Positions 2,227-61,807 of a DNA stretch of 64,000 bases are shown one piece after another. The notes below the pieces were generated by a model, which had not been told where the DNA came from, ran no database searches, and worked only from the letters and a program-made list of their open reading frames with translations. This DNA is from Gammaproteobacteria bacterium. GTDB taxonomy: Bacteria; Pseudomonadota; Gammaproteobacteria; Eutrophobiales; Eutrophobiaceae. The first letter of the stretch is position 1. Each line of letters starts with the position of its first letter. The DNA lies in NCBI GenBank assembly GCA_965222155.1, contig CBDCTH010000012.1, positions 96,001-160,000 of the forward strand. The letters are read 5' to 3'. A program made the position numbers and the translations under genes.

Positions 2227-2338
2227 AGGTAACAGCATAACAATGCTACAGATATGTCTGCGCAAGCAGGAATCCAGTAGAGCGATTATTCCTTGTCTGT
2301 GAAGCAAGGTTATCGGGCGTGTTTTGAAAGAGATTGAT

Positions 2339-5300
2339 ATGTCAGGACAACTATTCAAACAATATTTTTTAACGGACGGTATCAGGGAAACCAGGGAGTG
2401 GCAGGAATCGGTGAAGCAACCGGAGACGTATACCGGGTTCGCCAATGCCATCACCGCTCGCTTCAACAATTTCAGTCGCTTCAGTGAACCCAATGAAGCG
2501 GTTACGGAACAGGAACTCATTCGTCCGGTCCTGGAGATGCTGGGCTGGACCGACTACCTGCCGCAGCAGGGCACAGCGCGCAATGAGGACGTTCCCGATC
2601 ACCTTCTCTTTGCTGACGCGGACGCGAAGAAGCGGGCCAGTGCCCGCGGCAATTCGCAAGATCGTTATAAGGATGCGCTGCTGGTACAGGAAAGCAAGCG
2701 TATCGGCCGGTCTCTCGATAGCCGGGCAGATGACGAGCAGGCGCATGAGGGCACGCCCCAGGGGCAGATATTACGCTACCTGTTAACTGCTGAAATTGTG
2801 TCGGGGGGTCAGGTCCGTTGGGGCATTCTCACCAACGGCAGTGTCTGGCGACTTTACGACCAGCGCGCCAGACCGCGCGCCAGTGGCTTCTTCGAGACCG
2901 ACCTCAAGGCGATACTGGCTCAGGATGATGAAGACGGGCTGAGGATGTTCTTTCTGCTGTTTCACCGGGAAGCGTACCTGCTCCGGCAGGGCGCAACGGC
3001 TACCTTCCTGGAAGCCGCCCTCGCGCAGGGCCGGCGCTACGAAGAACAGGTGGCCCAGGACCTTTCAAGCGTCGTCTTTGATCGTGTCTTCCCCGGTCTC
3101 GTAAGGGCGCTTGCGGACGCTACCGGAAAAAGCCTGTCGCAGGTTCGCCCCGCCGCGCTGATCTTCCTGTACAGGTTGCTGTTCATCCTGTACGCCGAGG
3201 ACCGCGGGCTGTTGCCTGTCAACGACCTTCGCTATGATGATTACGGCCTGCGCAAGCGGGTGCGAGACGATATCGCGCAACGGAAAAAGCAGGGTGATAT
3301 CTTCTCCGACACGGCAGCCAACTACTACAACCGCTTGACCGAGCTTTTCAGGCTTATCGACAGGGGTGACGACTCCATCGGCTTACCTCCCTACAACGGC
3401 GGGCTGTTCGCGTCCGGGACTGCGCCGATTCTTGGCCGCGCGCGCCTGTCGGACGTGGTGGTCGCTGATATTATTTATGACCTGAGCCACACCGGAAGCG
3501 CGGATGAGCGTCGCTTTGTCAATTACCGCGACCTGTCGGTGCAGCAGATGGGTTCAATCTACGAGAGGCTGCTGGAGCGCGAACCGGTGCGCGCAGACGA
3601 CGGGAGCGTGTCGACCCGTCCCAATCCGTATGCGCGCAAGGACAGCGGCAGCTTCTACACGCCACAGGAGCTGGTTGACCTGATTGTGGAGCAGACGCTT
3701 AAACCGTTGGCTGAAGAGCGATTACAGGCGTTCGAGCACAGGTCGGAAGCGCTCAGGAGCGACCGTCGTCCAAAGGCCGAACGCTACGCCGAACTGGCCG
3801 ATCTGGACCCGTCCGAAGCGGTCTTGAATGTCAAAGTCCTGGACCCGGCGATGGGAAGCGGTCACTTCCTTGTCAGTGCGGTGGACTTCCTGTCTGACTA
3901 CATTGTTACCCTGGTCGAATATGTGCCGGCAGTGCCGGAATGGCTGGACGGCAAGTACACATCGCCACTCGTTGAGCGGATAACCGCAATCCGGGCCGAT
4001 ATTCTGAAACGGGCCGTCGAGTCCGGCTGGGTTATTGACGAGGCGCAGTTTACCGACCAGGCCATTATCCGGCGGATGGTGCTCAAACGCTGTATCTACG
4101 GCGTGGACAAGAACCCGCTGACCGTCGAGTTGGCGAAGATATCGCTGTGGCTGCACAGTTTCACCGTCGGCGCGCCGCTGTCGTTCCTGGACCACCACCT
4201 GCGCTGTGGCGATTCGCTTATCGGTCTCAGTGTGAAAAGCGCCACCGAGGAGTTGTACCGGCTTGGCAGCCTGTTTGTTTCCAGCGCTATTCAGGGCGCC
4301 GAGAACGCCGCCGCCGGTATGCAGCTCATCGAGGAGATGTCCGATGCTGACCTGTCGGAGGTGCGCGAGTCGGCAGACCTGTTCCGAGGCGTTGAAGCAA
4401 CAACAGTGAGCTTACGCGGCCTTCTTGACTTCGTCTGCGGCCTGCGCTGGCTGACGGCGGGAATGAACAAGTCGCAGCGCGCCGGTTTTGAGATTCCTCT
4501 CGTTGAGGCATTGGGAGCGAACCCCGATAACGCCTATAAGATGCTGTCCGGCGGCCCCGCCGCCGCGGCGGGTGATCAGGAAGAATCCTCTCCCTTCGGA
4601 GTGTTATGGAATCAAGCTGTGTCAATAGCCAGGCGCGAGGGCTTCCTGCATTGGCAGGTGGCCTTCCCCGGCGTCTAGCAGCGCTGGCAGGATCAGCGTC
4701 CTGAAGGCGGATTCGACGCCATAATTGGGAACCCTCCCTGGGAGCGCATCAAGCTGCAAGAAGTGGAGTGGTTCGCGACCCGCGCTCCGGAGCTGGCTCG
4801 CGCCCCGACCGCTGCCGCGCGTAAGGCCGGGATCAGGCAGCTTCGCGAACGGGGCGAGCCGTTGGCGCATGAGTTCGACGCGGCCAAGGCCCGTGCTGAT
4901 GACCTCGGTCAAATGGTTCGCACATCAGGTCACTACCCCCTGCTGGGCGGGGGTGATATCAACCTCTACTCACTGTTTGTCGAAAGGGCTATGGGGTTGG
5001 TCAAACCTGACGGTCTGGTGGGGTTGCTCACGCCGTCCGGCATCTACGCCGACAAGACTGCGGCGCGGTTCTTCAAGACTGTTTCGACAAGTGGACAAAT
5101 CGCCGGCTTGTTCGACTTCGAGAACCGCCGCCTCAGGTCCAACCAGCCACCATTTTTCCCGGACGTGGACTCGCGTTTCAAATTCTGCGCCCTGATATTC
5201 GGCGCTGACGAGCGACATTTTACAGAGACCCGGTGTGCTTTCTTCCTCAACGACACCGGCGCAATCAACGACCCGGAGCGCTGCTTCCCCTTATCACCTG

Positions 5301-6400
5301 AGGATTTCGCCCGGGTGAACCCCAATACCGGCACCGCGCCAATCTTCCGCCGCCGCGGCGACGCCGACATCACTCGCCGCATCTACGAGCGGCACCCGGT
5401 GCTCGTTGACCGTTCAGGCGATGAGCAGCGCCGCGCCTGGCCGGTACGCTACCAAACCATGTTTCACATGACCAACGACTCCCACCTGTTCCGTAGCGCG
5501 GCACAACTTGAAGCTGGAGGCTTCTATCCCGTTGAGGGCAATCGCTGGAAACGGGGAGAGGAACTGTACCTGCCGCTGTATGAGGGGAAGATGGTGCAGG
5601 CCTTTGACCACCGAGCCGCCAGCGTAGTGGTTAATCCCACAAATTTGAGCCGGCCCGCGCAGCCCATGATAACTACTTTGACACAACACCAAGATCCGGA
5701 CTGGCTACCCACCCCACAGTTTTGGGTTCCAGCATCGAAATGTGGTTGGCCGTCGGGATCAACCTGGGTTCTTGGCTTCAAGGAAATTACGGCGCCCACG
5801 AACGTCAGAACATTCATCTCGGCGCTTTTACCAACGGTTGGATTCGGGAACAAAGTACCAATTCTCAAACCAGAGACGATAAACCGCAATGAATGGTTAC
5901 TAGCCGCCAACTTCAACGCAATAATCTTCGACTTTGCCGCACGCCAGAAAATTCAAGGCCAGACCTTGAATCTGTTCATCGTTGAGCAGCTTCCTGTCAT
6001 AGCATCCGATGACTACGACCGGCAGTTCGGAGATATTACCGCCCGCGATCTCGTCCGCGACCACGTGCTTCGTCTCACCTATACGGCCCACGACATGGCG
6101 CCGTTTGCCCGCGACCTCGGCTATGACGGGCCGCCGTTCACTTGGGACGAAGAGGAGCGGCGTCACCTGCGCGCCCGCCTTGATGCGTTGTACTTCCACC
6201 TGTATGGGTTGTCGCGGCAGGATGCGAGTTACATACTGGATACCTTCCCTATCGTCCGCAAAGAAGATGAAGCAAAGTTTGGCTGCTACCGCACCCGTGA
6301 CCTTATCCTGGCATACATGAATGCCCTGGTGGCTGGTGATACAGAGACGATTGTAGCGGTACAGGGGAACCGAAGAAGCGCCTCACGGCGCCAAAGATAG
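2339..6400 (+). pseudogene. Type IIG (Eco57I-like) fused restriction endonuclease-methyltransferase with in-frame TAG at 4676-4678
   Basis: ORFs 2324-4678 and 4763-6400 share one frame: ...HWQVAFPGV*QRWQDQRPEGGFDAIIGNPPW; PD..ESK nuclease motif, motif I VLDPAMGSGHFL, motif IV NPPW. Confidence 0.85.
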
Positions 6401-6672: not shown

Positions 6673-6831
6673 GTCGTCAGTATAGCAGAATCCGCAGTAG
6701 CTTACGGATACACATAAAATCTAAACAGTTGCTCCCGCTAAATCGAGGTCAACACAGTGATTTTTGCCGGATTCGGGCAAGGGGGACAGATTTAAATGGG
6801 ACTTACTATACAATCTTACCCAAGGGTTTGG

Positions 6832-7248
6832 TTATTCAAAGAACAGGGGTCCCAATACTTTATGGCTTATCTCCCACATTTCGTGAGGTTGGTCTTCTAT
6901 ATAAATTTTGCATGAATGAGAATCCTTGTTCCAACGCGGATAGGTAAGCATTTCATCTTCATGTGCGCTAATTCTGATGGCATTGATTGATTTTTCAAAG
7001 TAAACAGATTTGATATCATTGCTGTCCTGATCGTCCTCAGGGAAACGGCGAACGCTGAACATAGGATAAATTCCTTCGCCATTTTGTTCCAATTGAAAAG
7101 CAAAACCGCGCCTGCGCTTGGCTGACAGTTTATTTGCTTCCTCCACATCGCGTTGCACTATTTGAAAGAGCGATTCGAACGTTAGATAAAGGTTGCACTT
7201 GGCTCGTTCGGCGACCTGGTTAGGGGGCAATGGCGTATTCTCAAACAT
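6832..7248 (-). CDS. Hypothetical passenger protein (138 aa)
   Basis: AT-rich ORF inside the IS, divergent from the transposase; no recognised motif. Confidence 0.6.
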   Translation of the reverse strand: MFENTPLPPNQVAERAKCNLYLTFESLFQIVQRDVEEANKLSAKRRRGFAFQLEQNGEGIYPMFSVRRFPEDDQDSNDIKSVYFEKSINAIRISAHEDEMLTYPRWNKDSHSCKIYIEDQPHEMWEISHKVLGPLFFE

Positions 7249-7291
7249 CCATAATTATATTAGCAGCAAAGGAAATAATTACCAAAAAAGC

Positions 7292-7320
7292 TTGACTTTT
7301 GGGTTGTTTTTGGGTAAAAT
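7292..7320 (+). promoter_or_regulatory. Sigma70-type promoter of the transposase
   Basis: TTGACT-N17-TAAAAT, 28 nt upstream of ATG 7349. Confidence 0.65.
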
Positions 7321-7348
7321 ACTCCCATATATTAATAGGTGCAACCAG

Positions 7349-8257
7349 ATGAAAAAGCAAAGAAATAAGTTATCAGTAGTCCAGATAATGAATATGTTTC
7401 CCGATGATGAAACTGCGGAGCAATGGTTTATAAATTGCCGCTGGCAACATGGGATAGATTGCCCGGCCTGTGGGTCAAAGCGAGTTTCGGAAAGAACGAC
7501 AGGCAAGCGGTCATGGCGTTGTAAGGATTGCCGTAAGGATTTTAGCACCAAGACCGGAACGTTAATGCAGGGCAGTAACCTGGGGTTCCGGGTGTGGGCG
7601 ATTGCTATTTACCTACTGACTACCAGCCTGAAGGGGATTGCCAGCACCAAGCTGGCGAGCGACTTGGGGATTACACAAAAGGTTGCCTGGCACCTGGCGA
7701 TGCGGATTCGGGAAACCTGCGGGGATAGGATGGCCCAGCTTCAGGGCGTTGTTGAGGTAGATGAAACGTATATTGGCGGCAAAAAAACTAATAAACATCA
7801 GAGCAAGCGTATTCCTGGCCGGGGGCCGTCCGGCAAGCAGGCGGTTATCGGCGCTAAGGAGAGAGGCGGCAACATCAGGGCAAAAAGCATTACCCGGCCA
7901 GACTTCTACAATCTCCGATCCTTCGTTAGTGAGGTTGTTGCTGAAGATGCCAATGTCATTACCGATGAGAACCGAGGGTATCAAGGTATTCCACAGGCGC
8001 ACCAGACAGTACACCATTCAGCTAAGGAATATGTCCGGGACCAAGCGCATACAAATGGTATTGAGTCCTTTTGGGCTTTATTAAAGCGGGGCTATTATAG
8101 CACTCACCATCACATGAGTTATAAGCATCTGGATCGGTACGTTAAGGAGTTCTCAGGCCGGGCCAATGACCGCCAGTCACACACTATTGAACAGATGTCG
8201 CACATGGCGCAGGCTATGAGAGGGAAACAATTGAGGTACAATGATCTGATTGCTTAG
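7349..8257 (+). CDS. IS1595-family (ISXO2-like) DDE transposase
   Basis: Zn ribbon CPACG...CKDC, HTH, VEVDETYIGG, ITDE, HTNGIESFWALLKRG, HLDRYVKEF. Confidence 0.93.
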   Translation: MKKQRNKLSVVQIMNMFPDDETAEQWFINCRWQHGIDCPACGSKRVSERTTGKRSWRCKDCRKDFSTKTGTLMQGSNLGFRVWAIAIYLLTTSLKGIASTKLASDLGITQKVAWHLAMRIRETCGDRMAQLQGVVEVDETYIGGKKTNKHQSKRIPGRGPSGKQAVIGAKERGGNIRAKSITRPDFYNLRSFVSEVVAEDANVITDENRGYQGIPQAHQTVHHSAKEYVRDQAHTNGIESFWALLKRGYYSTHHHMSYKHLDRYVKEFSGRANDRQSHTIEQMSHMAQAMRGKQLRYNDLIA

Positions 8258-8337
8258 CAGCAACTCCCAAGCACGATCAGTAAGTGGTTAAAAAAGCTAT
8301 ATTGGCCTGTCCGCGACACCCGCCTGGGTTAAAATAA

Positions 8338-8372
8338 AAAACCCGTGAACTCAACTGAGTTGCACGGGTTTT
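8338..8372. terminator. Long hairpin between transposase and tRNA
   Basis: AAAACCCGTG-AACTCA..TGAGTT-G-CACGGGTTTT, flanked by A and T tracts. Confidence 0.55.
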
Positions 8373-8380
8373 AATTTATC

Positions 8381-8465
8381 GCCCGGGTGGCGAAATTGGT
8401 AAACGCAGGAGTCTCGCACACTCCCAGTCCTCGTGGCTTTGCGGGTTCGAATCCCGCTCCGGGCA
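8381..8465 (+). tRNA. tRNA with Leu-type body and anticodon CGC (Ala); no encoded CCA
   Basis: Acceptor GCCCGGG/TCCGGGC plus A73; D arm GCG-AAATTGGTAAA-CGC; anticodon stem GGAGT/ACTCC with loop CT-CGC-AC; long variable arm AGTC/GGCT; T arm GCGGG-TTCGAAT-CCCGC. Confidence 0.88.
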
Positions 8466-8516
8466 CTCCTTTCTAGTGCACTTAGAAAGTCATTATAGTT
8501 ATTGTAATTCGGTATA

Positions 8517-8663
8517 TCAAACCGTGTTGTTTTTCTTCAAGTATTGCCAGTCTTTCTTCGGCGGGGCCTGCATGATGGCAACGGCAACCCCTTCAGGCCT
8601 GGTATCAACCGGCGGGATCACATTCTTAACAGGCCTCCCGCGCTGTTTAGTTTTCTTGGTCAT
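8517..8663 (-). CDS. 48-aa basic micro-protein with RGRP (AT-hook-like) motif
   Basis: MTKKTKQRGRPVKNVIPPVDTRPEGVAVAIMQAPPKKDWQYLKKNNTV; ATG 9 nt after the hicA stop; below ORF-track cutoff. Confidence 0.55.
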   Translation of the reverse strand: MTKKTKQRGRPVKNVIPPVDTRPEGVAVAIMQAPPKKDWQYLKKNNTV

Positions 8664-8672
8664 AACCAATTT

Positions 8673-8879
8673 TTATAATTCATGCTCTTCAATGCCAGTG
8701 ATATTCATTATTTTTTTCTGTAGTCCTACTTTTAAAGATTTATTGCCATGAACCGGTATTGAAATGGGATAAATCTCACCCTCCTTTACATAAATATGAT
8801 GGCTACCTTTAATGCGCTTAAGCTGCCACCCCTTCTTCCGGATAAGATAACACAACGTCTTTCCGCCTACTGTCTTCAA
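8673..8879 (-). CDS. hicA: HicA family toxin
   Basis: GWQLKRIKGSHHIY...ISIPVHGNKSLKVG. Confidence 0.88.
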   Translation of the reverse strand: MKTVGGKTLCYLIRKKGWQLKRIKGSHHIYVKEGEIYPISIPVHGNKSLKVGLQKKIMNITGIEEHEL

Positions 8880-9078
8880 AAGTAATCTCCCGTAAATCCC
8901 GTTCCAGGATAGTCTTTACATTATCAGCAAGAACAGATAAGCAACCATCAACAGCGTCCTTTAAATTAACAATCAACTCGTTAATTGTGTCTCCTTGTGT
9001 TACACAGCCAGGAATAGACGTAACTTCTGCCCAATAACCTCCTTCATCTGCAATATGAACGATAATCTCTGTTTTCAT
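8818..9078 (-). CDS. hicB: HicB family antitoxin (short, no DNA-binding domain)
   Basis: EGGYWAEVTSIPGCVTQGDTINEL; hicB-hicA order. Confidence 0.88.
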   Translation of the reverse strand: MKTEIIVHIADEGGYWAEVTSIPGCVTQGDTINELIVNLKDAVDGCLSVLADNVKTILERDLREITFEDSRRKDVVLSYPEEGVAA

Positions 9079-9381
9079 AACAGTTATCCTAATAACCATT
9101 TAGTGCGTACCCTAAAGGTACGTATACAATATATTATATATTTCAAACAGAAAAAATCAATTTTTTTGTTGACATCAATCTACCGCTAATCACGGGGTCA
9201 TGGGTAAGATTGTATATAAGTCCTATTTAAATCTGTCCCCCAGGAGGCCGAAGACAGCGGGGACAGATTTAAATCTGTCCCCTAGGAGGCGCGGGACATG
9301 TTTCCCTGGGATGGAGGGCGTCTCGCCCTCCACGAGGGCAGGATGCCCTCGATCCCGGGAGTTAGCGGGAGCACCTGAAAT

Positions 9382-12300
9382 CTAAAATTCGCGATCTTCC
9401 TGGATTATTGCCGCTTCGATCCGACCACTCAGGTAATCAATATATTTTCCCAACCATAGCTGGATTCCGGGAGATGGGATTTCTGACATCCAGCGCCTGG
9501 CGGCATCCCGTTTTTTTGATAGGTATATGCTATCAGGTCCCGTCCATCCGCCCATATAAAAATGCACGCAAAGGCTGCCGGCGATGCGATCATCATCACA
9601 GAATTCTTCAATAAATAAGCGTGTCAATTGACCACCGGCGTTTTCATCAAGGGTTTTCGGTAATACTTCTTGAATTAACCGGAGTCGGTTCTCTATGTCT
9701 GAGTTAATCCAGTCGATAATATCTTCTGCTGGCATGTAGTTAATGGCGCTGTGTTTCGGGTTATCTTCAAATCCAATATCCCCTAACCAGCTGATTAACT
9801 CATAATGATTCTTTGACTCAGATATCAGGAGTTCTGATACGATTTCCCATGCTTCATGGGGGTGGTCCTTTACAATATCAGAGGCGATGTTGTAAACAGT
9901 ATTTCGATAATGAAAAATTCTCCCTATATCGCTCATAATTTCCTTGAACAGATCCATATTCCGGTCAGGATGTTTCTTAAGAAAGCCTTTTGCTATTTTA
10001 TCCCAGTAAAACCCATACATCTGATCATAATCATCGCTGGAGGGCACTGCAGTCAGTACTTTAAAAATCAGATATTCAGGAAAATCGTCCGTGCAGTCCT
10101 CATGAAAATAATAATTGTAGACATACTGCGTACAAATATTGATTGAAGTGCCGTCAGCATGGTGCAGGAGTGCGGTAATGACCTGATGAAGTAGATCACT
10201 TGATAAACTGGTTGTATTCTGTGTAATAATAAATCCACCAAAAGCCACTGGTTCTAATTTCCCGTCCTCAAACAGGGCCAGCATAGCTCGCATGATTGAT
10301 TCGGTAAGACTGGAATCCCGTATGCAATCAATTGCGATTTTGCGAGTTGTTTCATTATATAATAAGCGATGTAGCAGATTTTCCCAGCGCACGGCACTAT
10401 GTGTGCGAACGCCGGCAAGATAGCTTCCCAGGAATTGACCATTGCTATTGGGACTGGCGGATTCGATATAACTCATTATTGGTTCATCAAATTTCGCTTC
10501 GGCTAACTTCCCGCATTCCTTTCCCAACTCCGGCACTCGATATCCGGATGCCTTGACCAGTCTTGGTATATGCTCAGAAAATACGGTAAGGTCCTTCATA
10601 TATTCTTCAGCTAAATCTTGTACTCGTTTGCCGGGTAGTTGTGCTTCCTTAAGTTTTTCCCCACGGGATATATGATCTTCTTCCCAGTTGATATACAGGA
10701 CATAGCGGCAGGTTCTTTCCCATAGTGAGGTGCCGGTTAATACGCTATCCAGTTGTCGGATTCTGGCAAGTGTTTTTTTATCAAGGGGAGCGCTATTTCG
10801 GTGGAGTTGCCGGATAACAAATTGAATCAAAGGGCGACGATTTATTTCTTTGTCGTCAGCAAGCTCAAACAGGATGTCCATTACTTCACCCACCATCGCT
10901 TTGTTATGCACAAACCCACTGGCGGCGCCAACGAATATCTCAGCAACCCGATTCCGATCATCTGCATCAAACCCTTTCATTTCAGCGCGTAGAAATTGTA
11001 ATACCTGGCGCCAATAATCGAATAACTCACCGTATGTCTTGGGGCGCCAGAATTCGATGGCCGGTTTTAGTCCCTGGTACTCAGCGCCAATCATCCGATA
11101 ACCTCCATGCGTCTTTAGCCATTCTTTGCACATTTCCAATCCAAGTGAACGACGACTGGCATCGTCACTCATGACCAGGTCTCGTAAGATTGAAAAGCGC
11201 TTGGACGGTGGCGCCTGTGTCGGCGCCCACCCCGGCCGGACCTGGAATAAACTGAGTAGTAGCTCCTTTGAGTTATTGGAATAGCCAGCATTTTCTGCCA
11301 GTGCCATGGGAATTAGTACAGACACCGCACGGGCAAACAAGTCATCCCATACCGCAATTTTTTCCAAGGCCCATACAATATCCTGGCAGCCGGTATTCCA
11401 GGCATACAGTTCTTCCTGTGACCATGTTTTAATCGTCCTTTCCAATAGGGCCACTGTTGCCCTCGGGTCAGCCTCAGACAGATAGTTCAGGAACCGTAAA
11501 CCGACTTCCGACTTTAAGAAACTCTGATCAGAGAATGGTCCGGTAGTTGATAATATATTTTTGACAACCTTTTTTGCTTGTGGCGCTTCTTGGGCGTAGA
11601 TAAACAATTCTAAAAACCATCGTTTCATACTCTTGGGAACCAGTCCCAGGAAATGCTGAAATTGAAATCCGTGACCATGATTCTTCCAAAATTGTACCCA
11701 TAGGTGTACATGTAACATTTTTGGCACAATGAACAAGGTGTGACGTCCTTGCAGTATGCGTTTGTCTCGATAGTACTGCACAATGACTTGAAATCGGCCC
11801 CAGGTAATCATTGGGTCAACTTGTTTAACGAGGTCGGAAATAAATTCAGCCTCAGCATCCACCGGTACTTCAAACCCAAATCGCTGAAATAATGCAATAT
11901 GACGCAGGACGATTCGATGTTGCGCCGCTTCGTTGCTTGCCATCTCTTTGTGCCCGATAATATATCGATCCCATACGTCAACATCGGCAGGTGCTTTCAG
12001 TAAGTCATCGGGATTACTTTTCAGATTTTCACCGAGCAGGTGGGCAACGCGCGGAGACCCACCGCACCACTTTGCCCAATTACTTAAATCCACCTGTTGT
12101 TGGAGATAGCTGAACAGGATATTTTTGATTTGTTCTTCTGGAAGTTGCGGACAGTGATATATCCGCATGGCGCTGTCGTGGGTATTATCCGGGCCATGAT
12201 CAATCGTAATCAAATTAATGCTGCTACGACCCTTCAACGCTGACCAGATCGATACCCTGTCACGATTATCACAATCATCAATCACTAATGTGACGGAATA

Positions 12301-13461
12301 GGTTCTGTCGGGTTTGAGCAATTCATTGAATAATTTACTCGTTTGAAAATCTTCACCTGCCGACACATAGATGACCGATGGCCCTATTTCATCGACGTCT
12401 AATGCTTCAAGCGCCAGGCGGGTTTTTCCGATACCCGGTTCACCGATGATGCGGATATGTTGAACGGTATTTTCCTGCAGGGCCGTTCTTATCTCCTTGA
12501 TCAATTCTGCCTGTTCATTGCCGAGTTCCAGTACGCCCTGCATCTGGGCGTTATTTCGCCAGCCCTTAATGGGCAGAAAGCTGCCGTCATCCAGACCGAC
12601 CAAGTCACAGCAAAGAGAAGGGTATTTGTACAATTCACCGGCTATCTGTCCTTGTCCGTACACGCGTACCTTTGGATTGGTATAGCCACATTCCTTGAAC
12701 AAATCAGCCAGGTGAGTGGCTGCCTGCGAGTGTTGAATTGGAAGCAAATCATGGCCGAACGTGACGAGAACGTAAGTCCCGTCCTGTTCGAGGCAAGTCC
12801 TTACCTCACTCCCTAAGCGTTGCTTCGATGGAAAGGCACCTGATTTCCCAAGTAATTCTTTCTTCAAGGCGCTGGGTTGCCAGGGTTTAAAAGCCGGGCC
12901 TGTCTTGATTTGATAATACGTACTACCTTTTGCCAACAGAAAACCAGAGGTCGGTGAATTTTCTACCTTTGCGTCAATACCGCTGTCTGGTGCGTTGATA
13001 TTTGAAGACAGCACCACGTCTTTTGGACTAAGCCCGTTGGCGATGGCTTCACATCGTAACAGCCTGAGGAACAGGTTGGGGCCTTCCTGCGAGCCCAATT
13101 GGCCCAGCTGGCTCGGGGTGGGGGCAAATGTCGAATGTACAGGGGCAAGATTTAGATTTATCGAGGCTGATTCTGGATGAAGTTGCACAGCTTGTACATG
13201 TATGCTTACACGCAGACCGGCTTTTTTGGCTAGTGATACAAGGGCATCAAGACTGAATTTATCAATTCTGTCTTTGAGTAAATCGTTCAAACGAGGCTGA
13301 GTAATGCCTAGTGCCTTAGCCTTATCAGCCTGTGTCCCGCCGATATGTTTTTGTATGTGTTCCCGCAAGGCTGCCATCAGTTTTGTCCGTCCCGGCATGT
13401 CAGCGGATGATTCACGACGGGTTCTTGTGGCAGGTTGCTGTTTCTTTACAGTTTTTGTCAT
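9382..13461 (-). CDS. XRE-HTH + PD-(D/E)xK-like nuclease + STAND-type NTPase + helical C-terminus; Avs-like defence protein
   Basis: HigA2-like ALGITQPRLNDLLKDRIDKFSLDAL; DSGIDA...YQIK; Walker A GEPGIGKT; Walker B LVIDD; GxP motif CGGSP. Confidence 0.7.
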   Translation of the reverse strand: MTKTVKKQQPATRTRRESSADMPGRTKLMAALREHIQKHIGGTQADKAKALGITQPRLNDLLKDRIDKFSLDALVSLAKKAGLRVSIHVQAVQLHPESASINLNLAPVHSTFAPTPSQLGQLGSQEGPNLFLRLLRCEAIANGLSPKDVVLSSNINAPDSGIDAKVENSPTSGFLLAKGSTYYQIKTGPAFKPWQPSALKKELLGKSGAFPSKQRLGSEVRTCLEQDGTYVLVTFGHDLLPIQHSQAATHLADLFKECGYTNPKVRVYGQGQIAGELYKYPSLCCDLVGLDDGSFLPIKGWRNNAQMQGVLELGNEQAELIKEIRTALQENTVQHIRIIGEPGIGKTRLALEALDVDEIGPSVIYVSAGEDFQTSKLFNELLKPDRTYSVTLVIDDCDNRDRVSIWSALKGRSSINLITIDHGPDNTHDSAMRIYHCPQLPEEQIKNILFSYLQQQVDLSNWAKWCGGSPRVAHLLGENLKSNPDDLLKAPADVDVWDRYIIGHKEMASNEAAQHRIVLRHIALFQRFGFEVPVDAEAEFISDLVKQVDPMITWGRFQVIVQYYRDKRILQGRHTLFIVPKMLHVHLWVQFWKNHGHGFQFQHFLGLVPKSMKRWFLELFIYAQEAPQAKKVVKNILSTTGPFSDQSFLKSEVGLRFLNYLSEADPRATVALLERTIKTWSQEELYAWNTGCQDIVWALEKIAVWDDLFARAVSVLIPMALAENAGYSNNSKELLLSLFQVRPGWAPTQAPPSKRFSILRDLVMSDDASRRSLGLEMCKEWLKTHGGYRMIGAEYQGLKPAIEFWRPKTYGELFDYWRQVLQFLRAEMKGFDADDRNRVAEIFVGAASGFVHNKAMVGEVMDILFELADDKEINRRPLIQFVIRQLHRNSAPLDKKTLARIRQLDSVLTGTSLWERTCRYVLYINWEEDHISRGEKLKEAQLPGKRVQDLAEEYMKDLTVFSEHIPRLVKASGYRVPELGKECGKLAEAKFDEPIMSYIESASPNSNGQFLGSYLAGVRTHSAVRWENLLHRLLYNETTRKIAIDCIRDSSLTESIMRAMLALFEDGKLEPVAFGGFIITQNTTSLSSDLLHQVITALLHHADGTSINICTQYVYNYYFHEDCTDDFPEYLIFKVLTAVPSSDDYDQMYGFYWDKIAKGFLKKHPDRNMDLFKEIMSDIGRIFHYRNTVYNIASDIVKDHPHEAWEIVSELLISESKNHYELISWLGDIGFEDNPKHSAINYMPAEDIIDWINSDIENRLRLIQEVLPKTLDENAGGQLTRLFIEEFCDDDRIAGSLCVHFYMGGWTGPDSIYLSKKRDAARRWMSEIPSPGIQLWLGKYIDYLSGRIEAAIIQEDREF

Positions 13462-13697: not shown

Positions 13698-14774
13698 TTG
13701 TTGATTGTTTATATTTTAATGAAAAAAGAAGATATTCAAATTGAAGAAGCAAGATGGGTAATTTTATCCACTTTACAACGAATTCCGGAGTTAATGGATA
13801 TCCGGGTTGACCTGGAAACCTGGACAGAGAAGTATAGAGCCGACCTCCTCGTCTCGTTTCGAAAACAGAACGACAGGAAGACCTTACTGGTTAAAATCGG
13901 AGCATCCGGTCAGCCCCGTTCAGCACGTGCCGCCGTGAACCAGTTGATAATACTTCGACAGAATCGACCTGGTGGCTATGGTGTATTTGCTGCGCCGTAT
14001 ATCTCTGATGCCTCAGCCGAGATATGTAAGAGTAGTGGGGTCGGCTATATCGACTTCTCCGGCAATTGCTGGTTACATTTCGACTCGATATTTATAGAGA
14101 TAAAGGGAAATCCTAATCGTTTTCTTCGAAAAAGCGGGCTCAAGTCGTTGTCCAAACCCAAAGCCGAGCGAATACTGCGTGCTTTGTTATGTGAACCGGG
14201 CCGTCAGTGGTTGGCAATGGAACTCGCCGAAGCAGCCGATGTCAGTATCGGTCAGGTTTCTAACGTTCGCAAGCTGCTGCTGGAGCGTGAATGGATACAG
14301 GATCAGAAACGAGGGATCAAGCTGACGGAGCCTTTCCAACTGCTTGCTTCCTGGTTAACCGAGTATCAATCGGACCGGAATACTGTGTACGAGTTTTATG
14401 ATATGGGTTCGACAGGGGAAATTGAGTCAATGATCGGGGATTTCTGTAAACGGTCGCAGACTCGCTATGCCCTCACCTGTTTTTCCGGTGCGTCGCGTTA
14501 TGCGCCGTTTACAACCTATAGAACGGTGGCGGTTTATATGGATATTTCAGAGAGAAATATAAAGGAACTGCCATTCAAGCGGGTGACATCCGGCGCCAAT
14601 ATCAGGATTATTTCGCCCTATGATGACGGGGTATTTTACCGAACTCGTAATATACGGGGACAGTTCGTGGTATCACATGTACAGTGTTATCTTGATCTCA
14701 AGGATGAAAAGGCAAGGGGTGAAGAAGGGGCTGAAGCCTTGCTTGAACAGGTGATTAAGCCATCATGGCAATAA
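13698..14774 (+). CDS. Type IV TA AbiEi-like antitoxin / winged-HTH protein
   Basis: APYIS...GYIDFSGN, wHTH ELAEAADVSIGQVSNV, C-terminal VQCYLDL...RGEEGAE. Confidence 0.65.
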   Translation: MLIVYILMKKEDIQIEEARWVILSTLQRIPELMDIRVDLETWTEKYRADLLVSFRKQNDRKTLLVKIGASGQPRSARAAVNQLIILRQNRPGGYGVFAAPYISDASAEICKSSGVGYIDFSGNCWLHFDSIFIEIKGNPNRFLRKSGLKSLSKPKAERILRALLCEPGRQWLAMELAEAADVSIGQVSNVRKLLLEREWIQDQKRGIKLTEPFQLLASWLTEYQSDRNTVYEFYDMGSTGEIESMIGDFCKRSQTRYALTCFSGASRYAPFTTYRTVAVYMDISERNIKELPFKRVTSGANIRIISPYDDGVFYRTRNIRGQFVVSHVQCYLDLKDEKARGEEGAEALLEQVIKPSWQ

Positions 14775-24105: not shown

Positions 24106-24281
24106 CAGCCGTTCCCGCTAACTCCCGGGAGCTAGGGCATCCTGCCCTCGTGGAGGGCGAGACGCCCTCGATCCCAGGGGAACATGCCCGTGACTCCTGG
24201 GGGACAGATTTAAATCTGTCCCCTCTGTCTTCGAATCCGGCAAGAATCACTGTATTGACTTCGAGTTAGCGGGAGAACCTG
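24106..24281. mobile_element. 176-bp MITE
   Basis: CAGCCGTTCCCGCTAACTC...GAGTTAGCGGGAGAACCTG; 9-bp TSD TTCTCAGAA. Confidence 0.88.
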
Positions 24282-36327: not shown

Positions 36328-36498
36328 AGTGTATAGATATTTGGGGTCAGGGGAAAATGCCCCTTTGGGGATAGATTTAAATCTGTCCCCCTTATCCGAA
36401 TCCGGCATGAATGGCTGCTTAGACACAAAATTAGCGGGAACTGCTGATTATTTTAAAAATTATTGACATTAACATGACTGGTCATATATCCTGGTCAT

Positions 36499-43266: not shown

Positions 43267-43442
43267 CAGGCGCTCCCGCTAAATCGAAGTCAATACAGTG
43301 ATTTTTACCGAAGACAGGGGGGGACAGATTTAAATCTGTCCCCCAAGTTCCCATAAAGGGGCATGTTTCCCTGGGAGGGAGGGTGTCTCGCCCTCCACGA
43401 GGGCAGGATGCCCCCGATCCCGGAAGTTAGCGGGAACTGCTG
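43267..43442. mobile_element. 176-bp MITE
   Basis: CAGGCGCTCCCGCTAA...TTAGCGGGAACTGCTG; 9-bp TSD CCATGTTAG. Confidence 0.88.
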
Positions 43443-44965: not shown

Positions 44966-45141
44966 CAGGTGCTCCCGCTAACTCGAAGTCAATACAGTGA
45001 TTCTTACCGGATTCGAAGACAGAGGGGACAGATTTAAATCTGTCCCCCAGGAGTCACGGGCATTTTCCCCTGGGAGGGAGGGCGTCTTGCCCTCCAAGAG
45101 GGCAGGATGCCCTCGGTCCCGGGAGTTAGCGGGAACTGCTG
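44966..45141. mobile_element. 176-bp MITE
   Basis: CAGGTGCTCCCGCTAACTC...GAGTTAGCGGGAACTGCTG; 9-bp TSD GCCCTCTGT. Confidence 0.9.
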
Positions 45142-61681: not shown

Positions 61682-61807
61682 CAGCAGTTCCCGCTAACTC
61701 CCGGGATCGGGGGCCTCCTGCCCTCGTGGAGGGCGAGACGCCCTCGATCCCAGGGAAATATGCCCCGTGACTCCTGGGGGACAGATTTAAATCTGTCCCC
61801 CTGTCTT
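61682..61807. mobile_element. Truncated copy of the 176-bp MITE
   Basis: CAGCAGTTCCCGCTAACTC end plus REP palindrome; other end missing (another partial copy ends at 36446). Confidence 0.75.

Follow-up and report, generated by a model that had tools for sequence, protein, structure and literature searches.

Natural tRNAs whose body and anticodon belong to different amino acids are known from only a few systems, among them tRNAProX and the allo-tRNAs. As described in the part of PMC10404621 used here, the tRNAProX genes of Streptomyces (tRNAProA/T/N) join a proline body to alanine, threonine or asparagine anticodons and have a synthetase paralogue of their own, and tRNAProA mistranslates alanine codons when it is expressed in Escherichia coli. 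The allo-tRNAs, according to the parts of PMC5389517 and PMC7609411 on which we draw, are class II tRNAs with 8/4 or 9/3 acceptor/T arms, many different anticodons and mostly serine or alanine identity; they come from soil and sediment metagenomes, often lie near toxin-antitoxin or transposon genes, and include some that are active in E. coli translation and others that are inactive. Here we describe a tRNA gene at positions 8381-8465 (+), called tRNA X below, in a 64-kb stretch of gammaproteobacterial DNA (hereafter the window) analyzed over its whole length. A canonical leucine-type tRNA body here carries the alanine anticodon CGC, and the gene lies inside a small transposon of the IS1595 family.

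Like tRNAProX, tRNA X combines a body of one identity with an anticodon of another, and with tRNAProA it shares an alanine anticodon, but its identity is leucine rather than proline, its anticodon is CGC rather than AGC, and it is borne on a transposon. Its anticodon loop is canonical, with U33, whereas tRNAProX is reported in the same part of PMC10404621 to have A33 and A34. No synthetase was found in or near the transposon. The class II body, the non-cognate anticodon and the presence of hicAB and a transposase in the same element recall the allo-tRNAs, from which tRNA X differs in its 7-bp acceptor stem, its 5-bp T stem and its leucine-type features. There is no eighth acceptor pair, since base -1 is a C opposite A73, and the statement in a preliminary description of this DNA, made from the sequence alone, that the fold is canonical and unlike the 8/4 and 9/3 allo-tRNAs agrees with the 7/5 arms as read directly. 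Because it has neither the allo-tRNA fold nor a partner synthetase, tRNA X would work like tRNAProX and the allo-tRNAs but belongs to neither. We found no literature description of a bacterial tRNA with a canonical fold, leucine identity and an alanine anticodon, although the supplements of PMC5389517 and PMC8450103 could hold one, and none is described in the consulted parts of a review of mistranslation (PMC11415595) and of the tRNAscan-SE 2 paper (PMC8450103). New here, then, are a tRNA of canonical fold that unites leucine identity with an alanine anticodon, the sequence proof that such a gene can ride in a small transposon beside a toxin-antitoxin pair, and at least 75 distinct tRNAs with a leucine body, the anticodon CGC and co-varying stems, in organisms that read GCG as alanine.

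Leucine-type bodies with the anticodon CGC

The gene itself has the following extent and parts:

8381-8465, plus strand: class II tRNA gene (tRNA X) with a tRNA-Leu body, anticodon CGC at 8415-8417, discriminator A73 at 8465, CCA not encoded

ARAGORN calls a single tRNA in the window, at 8381-8466 (+), with the anticodon cgc at its position 35 (8415-8417), and the Rfam tRNA model RF00005 matches 8381-8465 from end to end with 54.7 bits (E 5.2e-09, against a gathering score of 29), the only Rfam match in the window. On the same model the four native tRNA-Leu genes of the host genome score 50.6-59.2 bits, a range that includes the score of tRNA X, which is therefore as good a tRNA as they are. 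The preliminary description had proposed a fully paired 7/5 cloverleaf with U33, A37 and CGC at 8415-8417, and all of this can be read directly, with the correction that the pairing includes two wobbles: standard pairing is found at 24 of 24 pairs, two of which are G7.U66 and a U.G in the variable stem. The stems comprise 7 bp (acceptor), 3 bp (D), 5 bp (anticodon), 4 bp (variable) and 5 bp (T), the variable region measures 16 nt, and the anticodon loop is the 7-nt CU-CGC-AC, with U33 and A37 in place. The T loop, G18G19, U8 and A14 are canonical, and every universal tRNA nucleotide is intact. The long variable arm, A73, A15 with U48, C3:G70, the D arm GCG-AAATTGGTAAA-CGC and the absence of an encoded CCA (the 3' trailer begins CTCC) are likewise present in the sequence as had been described. 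Plain energy folding did not recover the cloverleaf (z -1.75, with 14 of 200 shuffles folding equally well); unmodified tRNA sequences usually fail in this way, and we therefore take energy folding to be uninformative here. By the E-value of the covariance model and by a D arm common to ordinary tRNA-Leu, tRNA X is beyond chance.

The leucine-type features of the body are A73, C2:G71, A14, A15/U48, G18G19 and an A after U20, to which may be added a 3-bp D stem with an 11-nt loop and a Leu-type D/T corner. In the part of PMC9976931 used here, the first six are given as leucine identity or anti-SerRS (seryl-tRNA synthetase) elements in E. coli, and leucyl-tRNA synthetase (LeuRS) is said to need neither the anticodon nor the variable arm. 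The anticodon of tRNA X is CGC, not a leucine anticodon (NAG or YAA). With respect to tRNA-Ala, the 3:70 pair is C:G and not G3:U70, and in place of the short class I variable loop there is an arm of 16 nt, the native alanine tRNAs being 76 nt long. A leucine-type body with an alanine anticodon and without the alanine identity pair, as first proposed, is thus what A73, C2:G71, the D/T corner, CGC and C3:G70 amount to. Overall identity is 64-72% to the native leucine tRNAs (72% to the host tRNA-Leu(UAA)) and 56-60% to the native Ser, Tyr and Sec tRNAs and one long tRNA called as Ile.

When one genome per species was scanned for the exact 18-nt D arm, at least 117 loci were found. Exact matches in 137 loci include 86 ARAGORN tRNAs, 75 of them with leucine anticodons among the matches listed. 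The D arm is shared by ordinary leucine tRNAs from many phyla. The 11 non-leucine calls consist of tRNA X itself, seven class II Leu-like bodies (anticodons cgc three times, agc, tgg twice and tta, among the matches listed) and three irregular ones (gat, tac, gcc). Overall, the closest sequence comes from a Bradymonadia metagenome-assembled genome (MAG), where an ordinary tRNA-Leu(UAA) has 80% identity. It differs from tRNA X at 17 positions, 10 of them in stems, four in the anticodon loop (positions 34, 35, 36 and 38) and three elsewhere, and all seven of the seven changed pairs remain paired, three of them by double change. From this pattern we conclude that tRNA X is a Leu(UAA)-type tRNA in which the anticodon has been replaced and the structure kept under selection. 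It has the length of tRNA-Leu(UAA), its long variable arm, its A73 and C2:G71 and exactly its D arm, and the two T arms are nearly the same; what separates tRNA X is the anticodon, CGC in place of UAA, and a C rather than an A at position 38. From the tRNA-Leu genes of its own host it also differs in lying on a transposon and in lacking CCA, which all of those genes encode. Other class II bodies of the leucine type were seen with the anticodons UGG (Verrucomicrobiota and Acidobacteriaceae MAGs), UUA (a Rhodanobacteraceae MAG), AGC (a Gemmatimonadales MAG) and UCU (the host's class).

The combination of body and anticodon is not confined to tRNA X. Defined by a pattern of a Leu-type D arm, seven bases and U-CGC-A, the family has at least 120 matches in metagenome contigs, and in all loci together ARAGORN calls a tRNA with the anticodon cgc at 110 of 125 pattern matches, with 79 distinct sequences among the matches listed. 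When the 78 distinct sequences that could be parsed are compared, the acceptor stem has 7/7 pairs in 77, A73 is present in 76, CCA is encoded in one, and 69 are 84 nt long. Three sequences of odd length were dropped, which leaves 75 of the 78 in a cloverleaf alignment in which 98.8% of cells pair and double changes occur at 21 of the 24 pairs. The search pattern fixes the D arm and the anticodon but not the stems, and in the controls none of 500 shuffles reaches the level of the family, while partners slid out of register pair at 38-50%. As judged from this covariation, the structure of the family appears clearly to be under compensatory selection. The earlier view that intact stems signify selection and not decay is therefore supported both against the nearest tRNA-Leu(UAA) and across the 75 family members. 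Pair 3:70 in these 75 is UA in 40, CG in 24, GC in 10 and UG in one, and never G:U. Grouping at 90% identity gives 38 clusters and at 80% gives 11, and the acceptor strand occurs in 15 versions.

Occurrence of the family is sporadic: the pattern was found in 6 of 301 sampled genomes of one carrier's phylum, some of them with two copies. One Gemmatimonadales MAG has at least three such genes, one of which has C33 in place of U33. Beside the soil members lie ordinary chromosomal genes, for an S9 peptidase, a Ser/Thr kinase, a glyoxalase and MBL and DUF2779 proteins. No conserved protein partner emerged, a neighbour cluster spanning 79 loci having turned out to be the translated tRNA itself, and a tblastn search of 237 loci for IS1595 or HicAB beside the soil family matched only a locus (L080) with a leucine body of another anticodon. 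Of the genomic copies, one has a DUF772 transposase at a distance of 400 nt and one a HigBA-like pair at 1.5 kb. In many members of the family (loci L138-L257), leader and trailer remain complementary for 2-3 bases past the acceptor stem, as in GGU...ACC; 63 of 78 have a U at position -1, and CCC or CCG predominates at positions 74-76, where CCA is almost never seen. The CGC pattern has no match in viral contigs, where a more general scan for the Leu-type D arm gave 75 called tRNAs from 120 matches, none of them with CGC. In the phage contigs L351, L380 and L383 (L356 is similar) there are class II tRNAs that combine a Leu-type D arm with the asparagine anticodon GUU, G73 and an encoded CCA; in L351, L380 and L383 position 37 of the called loop is a pyrimidine.

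The transposon and its expression signals

The element that carries tRNA X, with its target site and the signals around the tRNA, is made up as follows:

6790-6797, no strand: left copy of the target-site duplication, ATTTAAAT, 8 bp, in the hairpin loop of a genome-wide repeat of ~175 nt
6798-9224, plus strand: IS1595-family transposon, 2,427 bp, with transposase, tRNA and hicAB as cargo
7193-8257, plus strand: transposase (Pfam), 354 amino acids (aa) from the first TTG; the true start may be further downstream
8335-8486, minus strand: predicted antisense RNA of ~150 nt over the whole tRNA, ending at the hairpin and U run
8338-8372, no strand: G+C-rich hairpin, candidate bidirectional terminator, 8 nt upstream of the tRNA, with the longer U run on the minus strand
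8469-8489, no strand: near-perfect 21-bp palindrome CTTTCTA-GTGCAC-TTAGAAAG, directly 3' of the tRNA, at the predicted antisense start
8492-8520, minus strand: sigma-70-like promoter TTGATA-17-TATAAT, antisense, pointing into the tRNA, 11/12 consensus matches
8673-8879, minus strand: hicA toxin gene, 68 aa (Pfam HicA_toxin, 2.7e-15)
8818-9099, minus strand: hicB-like antitoxin gene, 93 aa (Pfam HicB_lk_antitox, 1.5e-05, under the curated cut-off)
9225-9232, no strand: right copy of the target-site duplication, ATTTAAAT, 8 bp, matching the left copy

The ends of the transposon, 6798-6822 and 9224-9201, form inverted repeats, with 23 of 24 positions matching and a single indel, and the transposase has the domains DDE_Tnp_IS1595 (Pfam, 1.8e-37) and Zn_ribbon_IS1595 (7.5e-09). 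The sequence to the left of 6797 and to the right of 9249 belongs to the ~175-nt repeat, which has more than 150 blastn matches across the genome. Elsewhere in the genome the intact hairpin of this repeat reads GGGGACAG-ATTTAAAT-CTGTCCCC, with a single ATTTAAAT, and at the insertion site it is broken at ATTTAAAT, which flanks the insert on both sides. The proposal that the gene is mobile is supported by its position within inverted ends, an 8-bp target-site duplication and a split repeat. The preliminary description had called the tRNA linked to IS1595; the association stands, but the gene is actually inside the IS1595-family element, as its cargo. Members of the IS1595 family typically make 8-bp duplications, and some carry passenger genes. 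The present element resembles other IS1595 insertion sequences in its transposase with DDE and zinc-ribbon domains, its short terminal inverted repeats and its 8-bp duplication, and differs from them in its passengers, a tRNA gene and hicAB; we found no description of a tRNA passenger in this family in the literature. Within the window the repeat, which is like a repetitive extragenic palindrome (REP) or a miniature inverted-repeat transposable element (MITE) and has an internal hairpin, occurs at 6724-6797, 9249-9386, ~24113-24233, 36375-36455, 43308-43435, 45014-45134 and 61689-61807.

A scan of the region 6700-9400 for sigma-70-like promoters, by consensus matching, gave seven sites, where shuffled sequences give 5.5 +/- 2.4. 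The best of the seven lies on the minus strand at 8520-8492 and points into the tRNA; an RNA begun there would be predicted to cover the whole tRNA and to end at the hairpin 8338-8372, which on the minus strand has -20.3 kcal/mol and is followed by six U. This hairpin is not listed by the consensus terminator scan, whose loop and tail rules are strict. The predicted antisense RNA folds at -55.3 kcal/mol (z -3.26), with the terminal hairpin and U6 at its end, and the palindrome at its start may possibly be an operator. A promoter-like site for hicB was found at 9160-9133 (-), TTGATT-16-TATAAT, with 10/12 consensus matches, and 8335-8486 (-) is likely also to be the path of the 3' untranslated region (UTR) of hicBA transcripts. 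An open reading frame (ORF) of 91 aa at 8476-8751 (+) is unlikely to be a gene; it has no Pfam match and overlaps the end of hicA as well as the antisense promoter.

Only two sequencing runs, both from a single study and perhaps the source of the element, contain the whole transposon, and runs of other studies contain parts of it at ~85-95% likeness, mainly hicAB; these data are contigs, in which gaps in coverage are not evidence of absence. In one of these runs (X4), a contig over 8396-8523 differs at 15 positions and has two gaps of one base each in the variable arm, and the change 8458 T>C in the contigs of that run turns G7.U66 into G:C. Homologues of the transposase occur in 31 of 300 sampled genomes of the host's class, at no more than 51% identity, and a tRNA lies within reach of the homologue in one of the 29 loci fetched (two of the 29, L266 and L276, come from genomes flagged unpublished). 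This tRNA, at locus L270, belongs to class II, is 87 nt long and combines A73 and a D arm resembling that of tRNA X with the arginine anticodon UCU (58.9 bits); it is found 1.1 kb downstream of the IS1595 transposase and has a minus-strand terminator just 5' of it. At locus L080, in an Acidobacteriaceae MAG, a leucine-body tRNA with the proline anticodon UGG is followed 167 nt on by an IS1595 transposase. In both cases what is observed is adjacency to the transposase. The survey of IS1595-linked homologues that had been suggested, in search of other anticodons on leucine bodies, thus yields UCU and UGG. A composite transposon around the UCU tRNA was considered and rejected, its two 294-aa ORFs being unrelated, and the uncharacterised ORFs beside the UCU and UGG tRNAs show no relation to each other.

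Decoding, silence or RNA regulation

The host genome (4.55 Mb, 12 contigs) has 46 ARAGORN tRNAs, which include Leu(taa, cag, gag, caa) and Ala(ggc, tgc) and among which there is no ordinary Ala(CGC); it has one leuS above the family cut-off, 2.9 Mb away. Against this background, we favour the reading in which tRNA X is mobile, receives leucine from LeuRS, decodes GCG (Ala->Leu) and is tightly restrained, and give it a probability of about 0.5. The steps that we infer, from transcription and maturation through leucylation and decoding to antisense regulation, would be these. The gene would be of foreign origin, from a body of the tRNA-Leu(UAA) type whose anticodon loop now reads CU-CGC-AC, and is cargo of the 2.4-kb IS1595-family transposon alongside hicAB. 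A sense transcript would be cut by RNase P, trimmed at its 3' end and given CCA; the mature tRNA would then be leucylated by the single LeuRS of the host, bacterial LeuRS recognising A73 and the D/T-loop corner and not the anticodon; and EF-Tu would bring it to GCG codons, so that leucine would replace alanine across the proteome. The anticodon of tRNA X would be the only one in the host to pair with GCG in full Watson-Crick fashion, the native alanine tRNAs being just Ala(UGC) and Ala(GGC). Output would be held down by the lack of a recognisable promoter of its own and by the terminator hairpin 8 nt upstream, and a convergent promoter with an operator-like palindrome would give the ~150-nt antisense RNA that ends at the same hairpin. 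Alanyl-tRNA synthetase (AlaRS), like LeuRS, ignores the anticodon. An alanine anticodon would therefore recruit no second synthetase, and for this reason such anticodons may recur on foreign bodies, as in tRNA X and tRNAProA.

The layout resembles type I toxin-antitoxin and other antisense-controlled loci, in that a potentially harmful product faces a strong convergent promoter and a small RNA predicted to be fully complementary to it; the difference is that the 'toxin' here would be a tRNA and not a peptide, and the likeness is one of resemblance only. On a bolder version of the favoured reading, the CGC tRNAs would be a widespread, selected and partly mobile class of mistranslation agents, and tRNA X the toxic half of an antisense-silenced RNA-RNA addiction or stress module, in which loss or shut-off of the antisense RNA would release a flood of Ala->Leu substitutions and so stabilise the element or abort phage infection alongside hicAB. 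We regard this extension as quite improbable. Should such tRNAs be charged and take part in translation, regulated Ala->Leu mistranslation would be common among bacteria and open to horizontal transfer, and would readily supply missense suppressors of orthogonal appearance; should they play no part in translation, one would have to explain why an RNA of perfect tRNA shape has a conserved role other than decoding.

Several observations weigh against decoding by tRNA X, and a number of them speak for a serious rival, which we think rather unlikely, namely that the gene is silent or dying cargo, acquired in a former host and here neither transcribed nor matured, with its stems still intact because it arrived recently. 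Selection should act strongly against an Ala->Leu tRNA that is active at all times. The consensus scan of 6700-9400 found no sigma-70-like site on the plus strand upstream of tRNA X, so that the tRNA strand offers silence the support of having no promoter of its own, and the gene starts 8 nt past the hairpin and U run that follow the transposase gene. CCA is encoded by 43 of the 46 host tRNAs but not by tRNA X, and a host RNase Z above the family cut-off was not found (best 72.8 against 292.95 bits), two facts that together also favour silence. Two PolyA_pol-head genes, which could include a CCA-adding enzyme, are present in the host, so that maturation of a precursor without CCA is possible, although not assured with RNase Z under its cut-off. 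No homologue of tRNA X was found in plasmids or in 60 relatives, in which the best matches reach at most 78% and are ordinary Leu(UAA) (in eight loci checked, Leu(taa) was called in six and nothing in two); this, together with the single copy in the host genome (tblastn finds one close copy of the transposase), is again as expected of silent cargo. So is a related form of the element (run X4; RNA library X17) in which 8426 is connected to 8514 through five letters of other sequence and from which the tRNA's 3' half is missing, along with the palindrome and the antisense -10. From this form and the X4 contigs described above it follows that the tRNA has been kept in some relatives and lost in others. 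The transposase is rich in GCG, which makes up 9 of its 24 alanine codons, so that the element does not shield itself and the idea of self-protection by avoidance of GCG is rejected; in hicB 0 of 6 alanine codons are GCG and hicA has no alanine, numbers too small to count. Pseudogenes of allo-tRNAs tied to transposons are moreover on record in the part of PMC5389517 used here. As to the family, tRNA X is only 71-72% identical to the nearest CGC members outside the parts fixed by the pattern, and may share descent with them or have arisen in parallel; it is a singleton at the 80% grouping and is closer (80% overall) to ordinary Leu(UAA). The layout with a minus-strand terminator upstream is seen in 2 of 77 family members, tRNA X included, and at L270, and is rejected as a trait of the CGC family.

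Against silence, on the other hand, stand the 24 of 24 intact pairs with all universal tRNA nucleotides, a pairing that survives every stem change relative to the nearest tRNA-Leu, an anticodon loop of regular form and 7 nt, with U33 and A37, in which all three anticodon bases have changed to one sense anticodon, and the structural selection on the same body and anticodon in 75 other sequences. In a second serious rival, which we hold to be unlikely, the locus acts by RNA regulation and not by decoding: either the ~150-nt antisense RNA or the hicBA 3' UTR passing through the tRNA gene would be the actual product, or a sense/antisense pair would control hicBA or the stability of the element, and both ways the tRNA shape would be a module for processing or stability. 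Such a role would fit the best promoter match in the element (11/12), which points into the tRNA with the palindrome at its start, as well as the hairpin, which is the better terminator on the minus strand, and the strong predicted fold of the antisense RNA (z -3.26). It would also fit L270, where the minus-strand terminator just 5' of the tRNA is accompanied by a convergent gene running towards the tRNA, and an RNA-library contig that joins the hicBA region to the hairpin side, in which carry-over of DNA is possible. A module of this kind would not, however, need U33, a purine at 37, a 7-nt loop, A73 and a Leu-type D/T corner, yet all of these are kept; no minus-strand promoter was found beside the L270 or L080 tRNAs, the upstream terminator is seen in only the two of 77 family members noted above, and the promoter calls are consensus matches only.

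We consider it hardly credible that GCG has changed its meaning to leucine or that tRNA X is charged with alanine, as an odd but faithful tRNA-Ala, even though the anticodon is that of alanine, A73 is found in tRNA-Ala as well, and the host has no ordinary tRNA-Ala(CGC). The 3:70 pair is C:G in tRNA X and in none of the 75 family members is it G:U, and the gene lies on a transposon and was not found in the 60 relatives. In the host, GCG is used at 26.0 per 1000 codons and makes up 28% of alanine codons (1,408 long ORFs). In 42 proteins of four gene families beside the soil members, the columns at GCG codons hold 23.2% Ala and 8.2% Leu in homologues, which matches the columns at GCC (28.0% Ala, 6.6% Leu) and not those at CTG (29.9% Leu). 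Reassignment of GCG to leucine is rejected on this codon use and on GCG columns that are mainly alanine, and with GCG read as alanine in these organisms, leucylation of a CGC tRNA would introduce errors and not define a code.

Neighbouring genes and other host tRNAs

Upstream of the transposon, at 2324-6400, lies an MmeI/Eco57I-like methylase-nuclease in two ORFs, a neighbourhood of the defence type. Downstream are a 1359-aa protein whose sole match is an N-terminal HTH_37 (9382-13461) and an AbiEi-like regulator (13698-14774). The restriction-modification genes, the 1359-aa HTH protein and the AbiEi-like gene are all outside the transposon, and their nearness to tRNA X may therefore be incidental.

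In the host genome ARAGORN did not find a tRNA-Leu(UAG), although CTA is used at 3.0 per 1000 codons, and it found only two CAU tRNAs. Some tRNAs are duplicated on small host contigs, and contamination is put at 7.28%; the assembly is probably incomplete or mixed. One further host tRNA, 89 nt long and of class II, is located on contig C4 at 126382-126470 (minus); it is serine-like, with G73 and an encoded CCA, is called Ile(gat), and scores 45.2 bits on the Rfam tRNA model. The two uppermost pairs of its acceptor stem are C.C mismatches, the 5' strand of that stem is part of an upstream hairpin, and the tRNA may be a second mismatch of identity and anticodon or a decayed copy.

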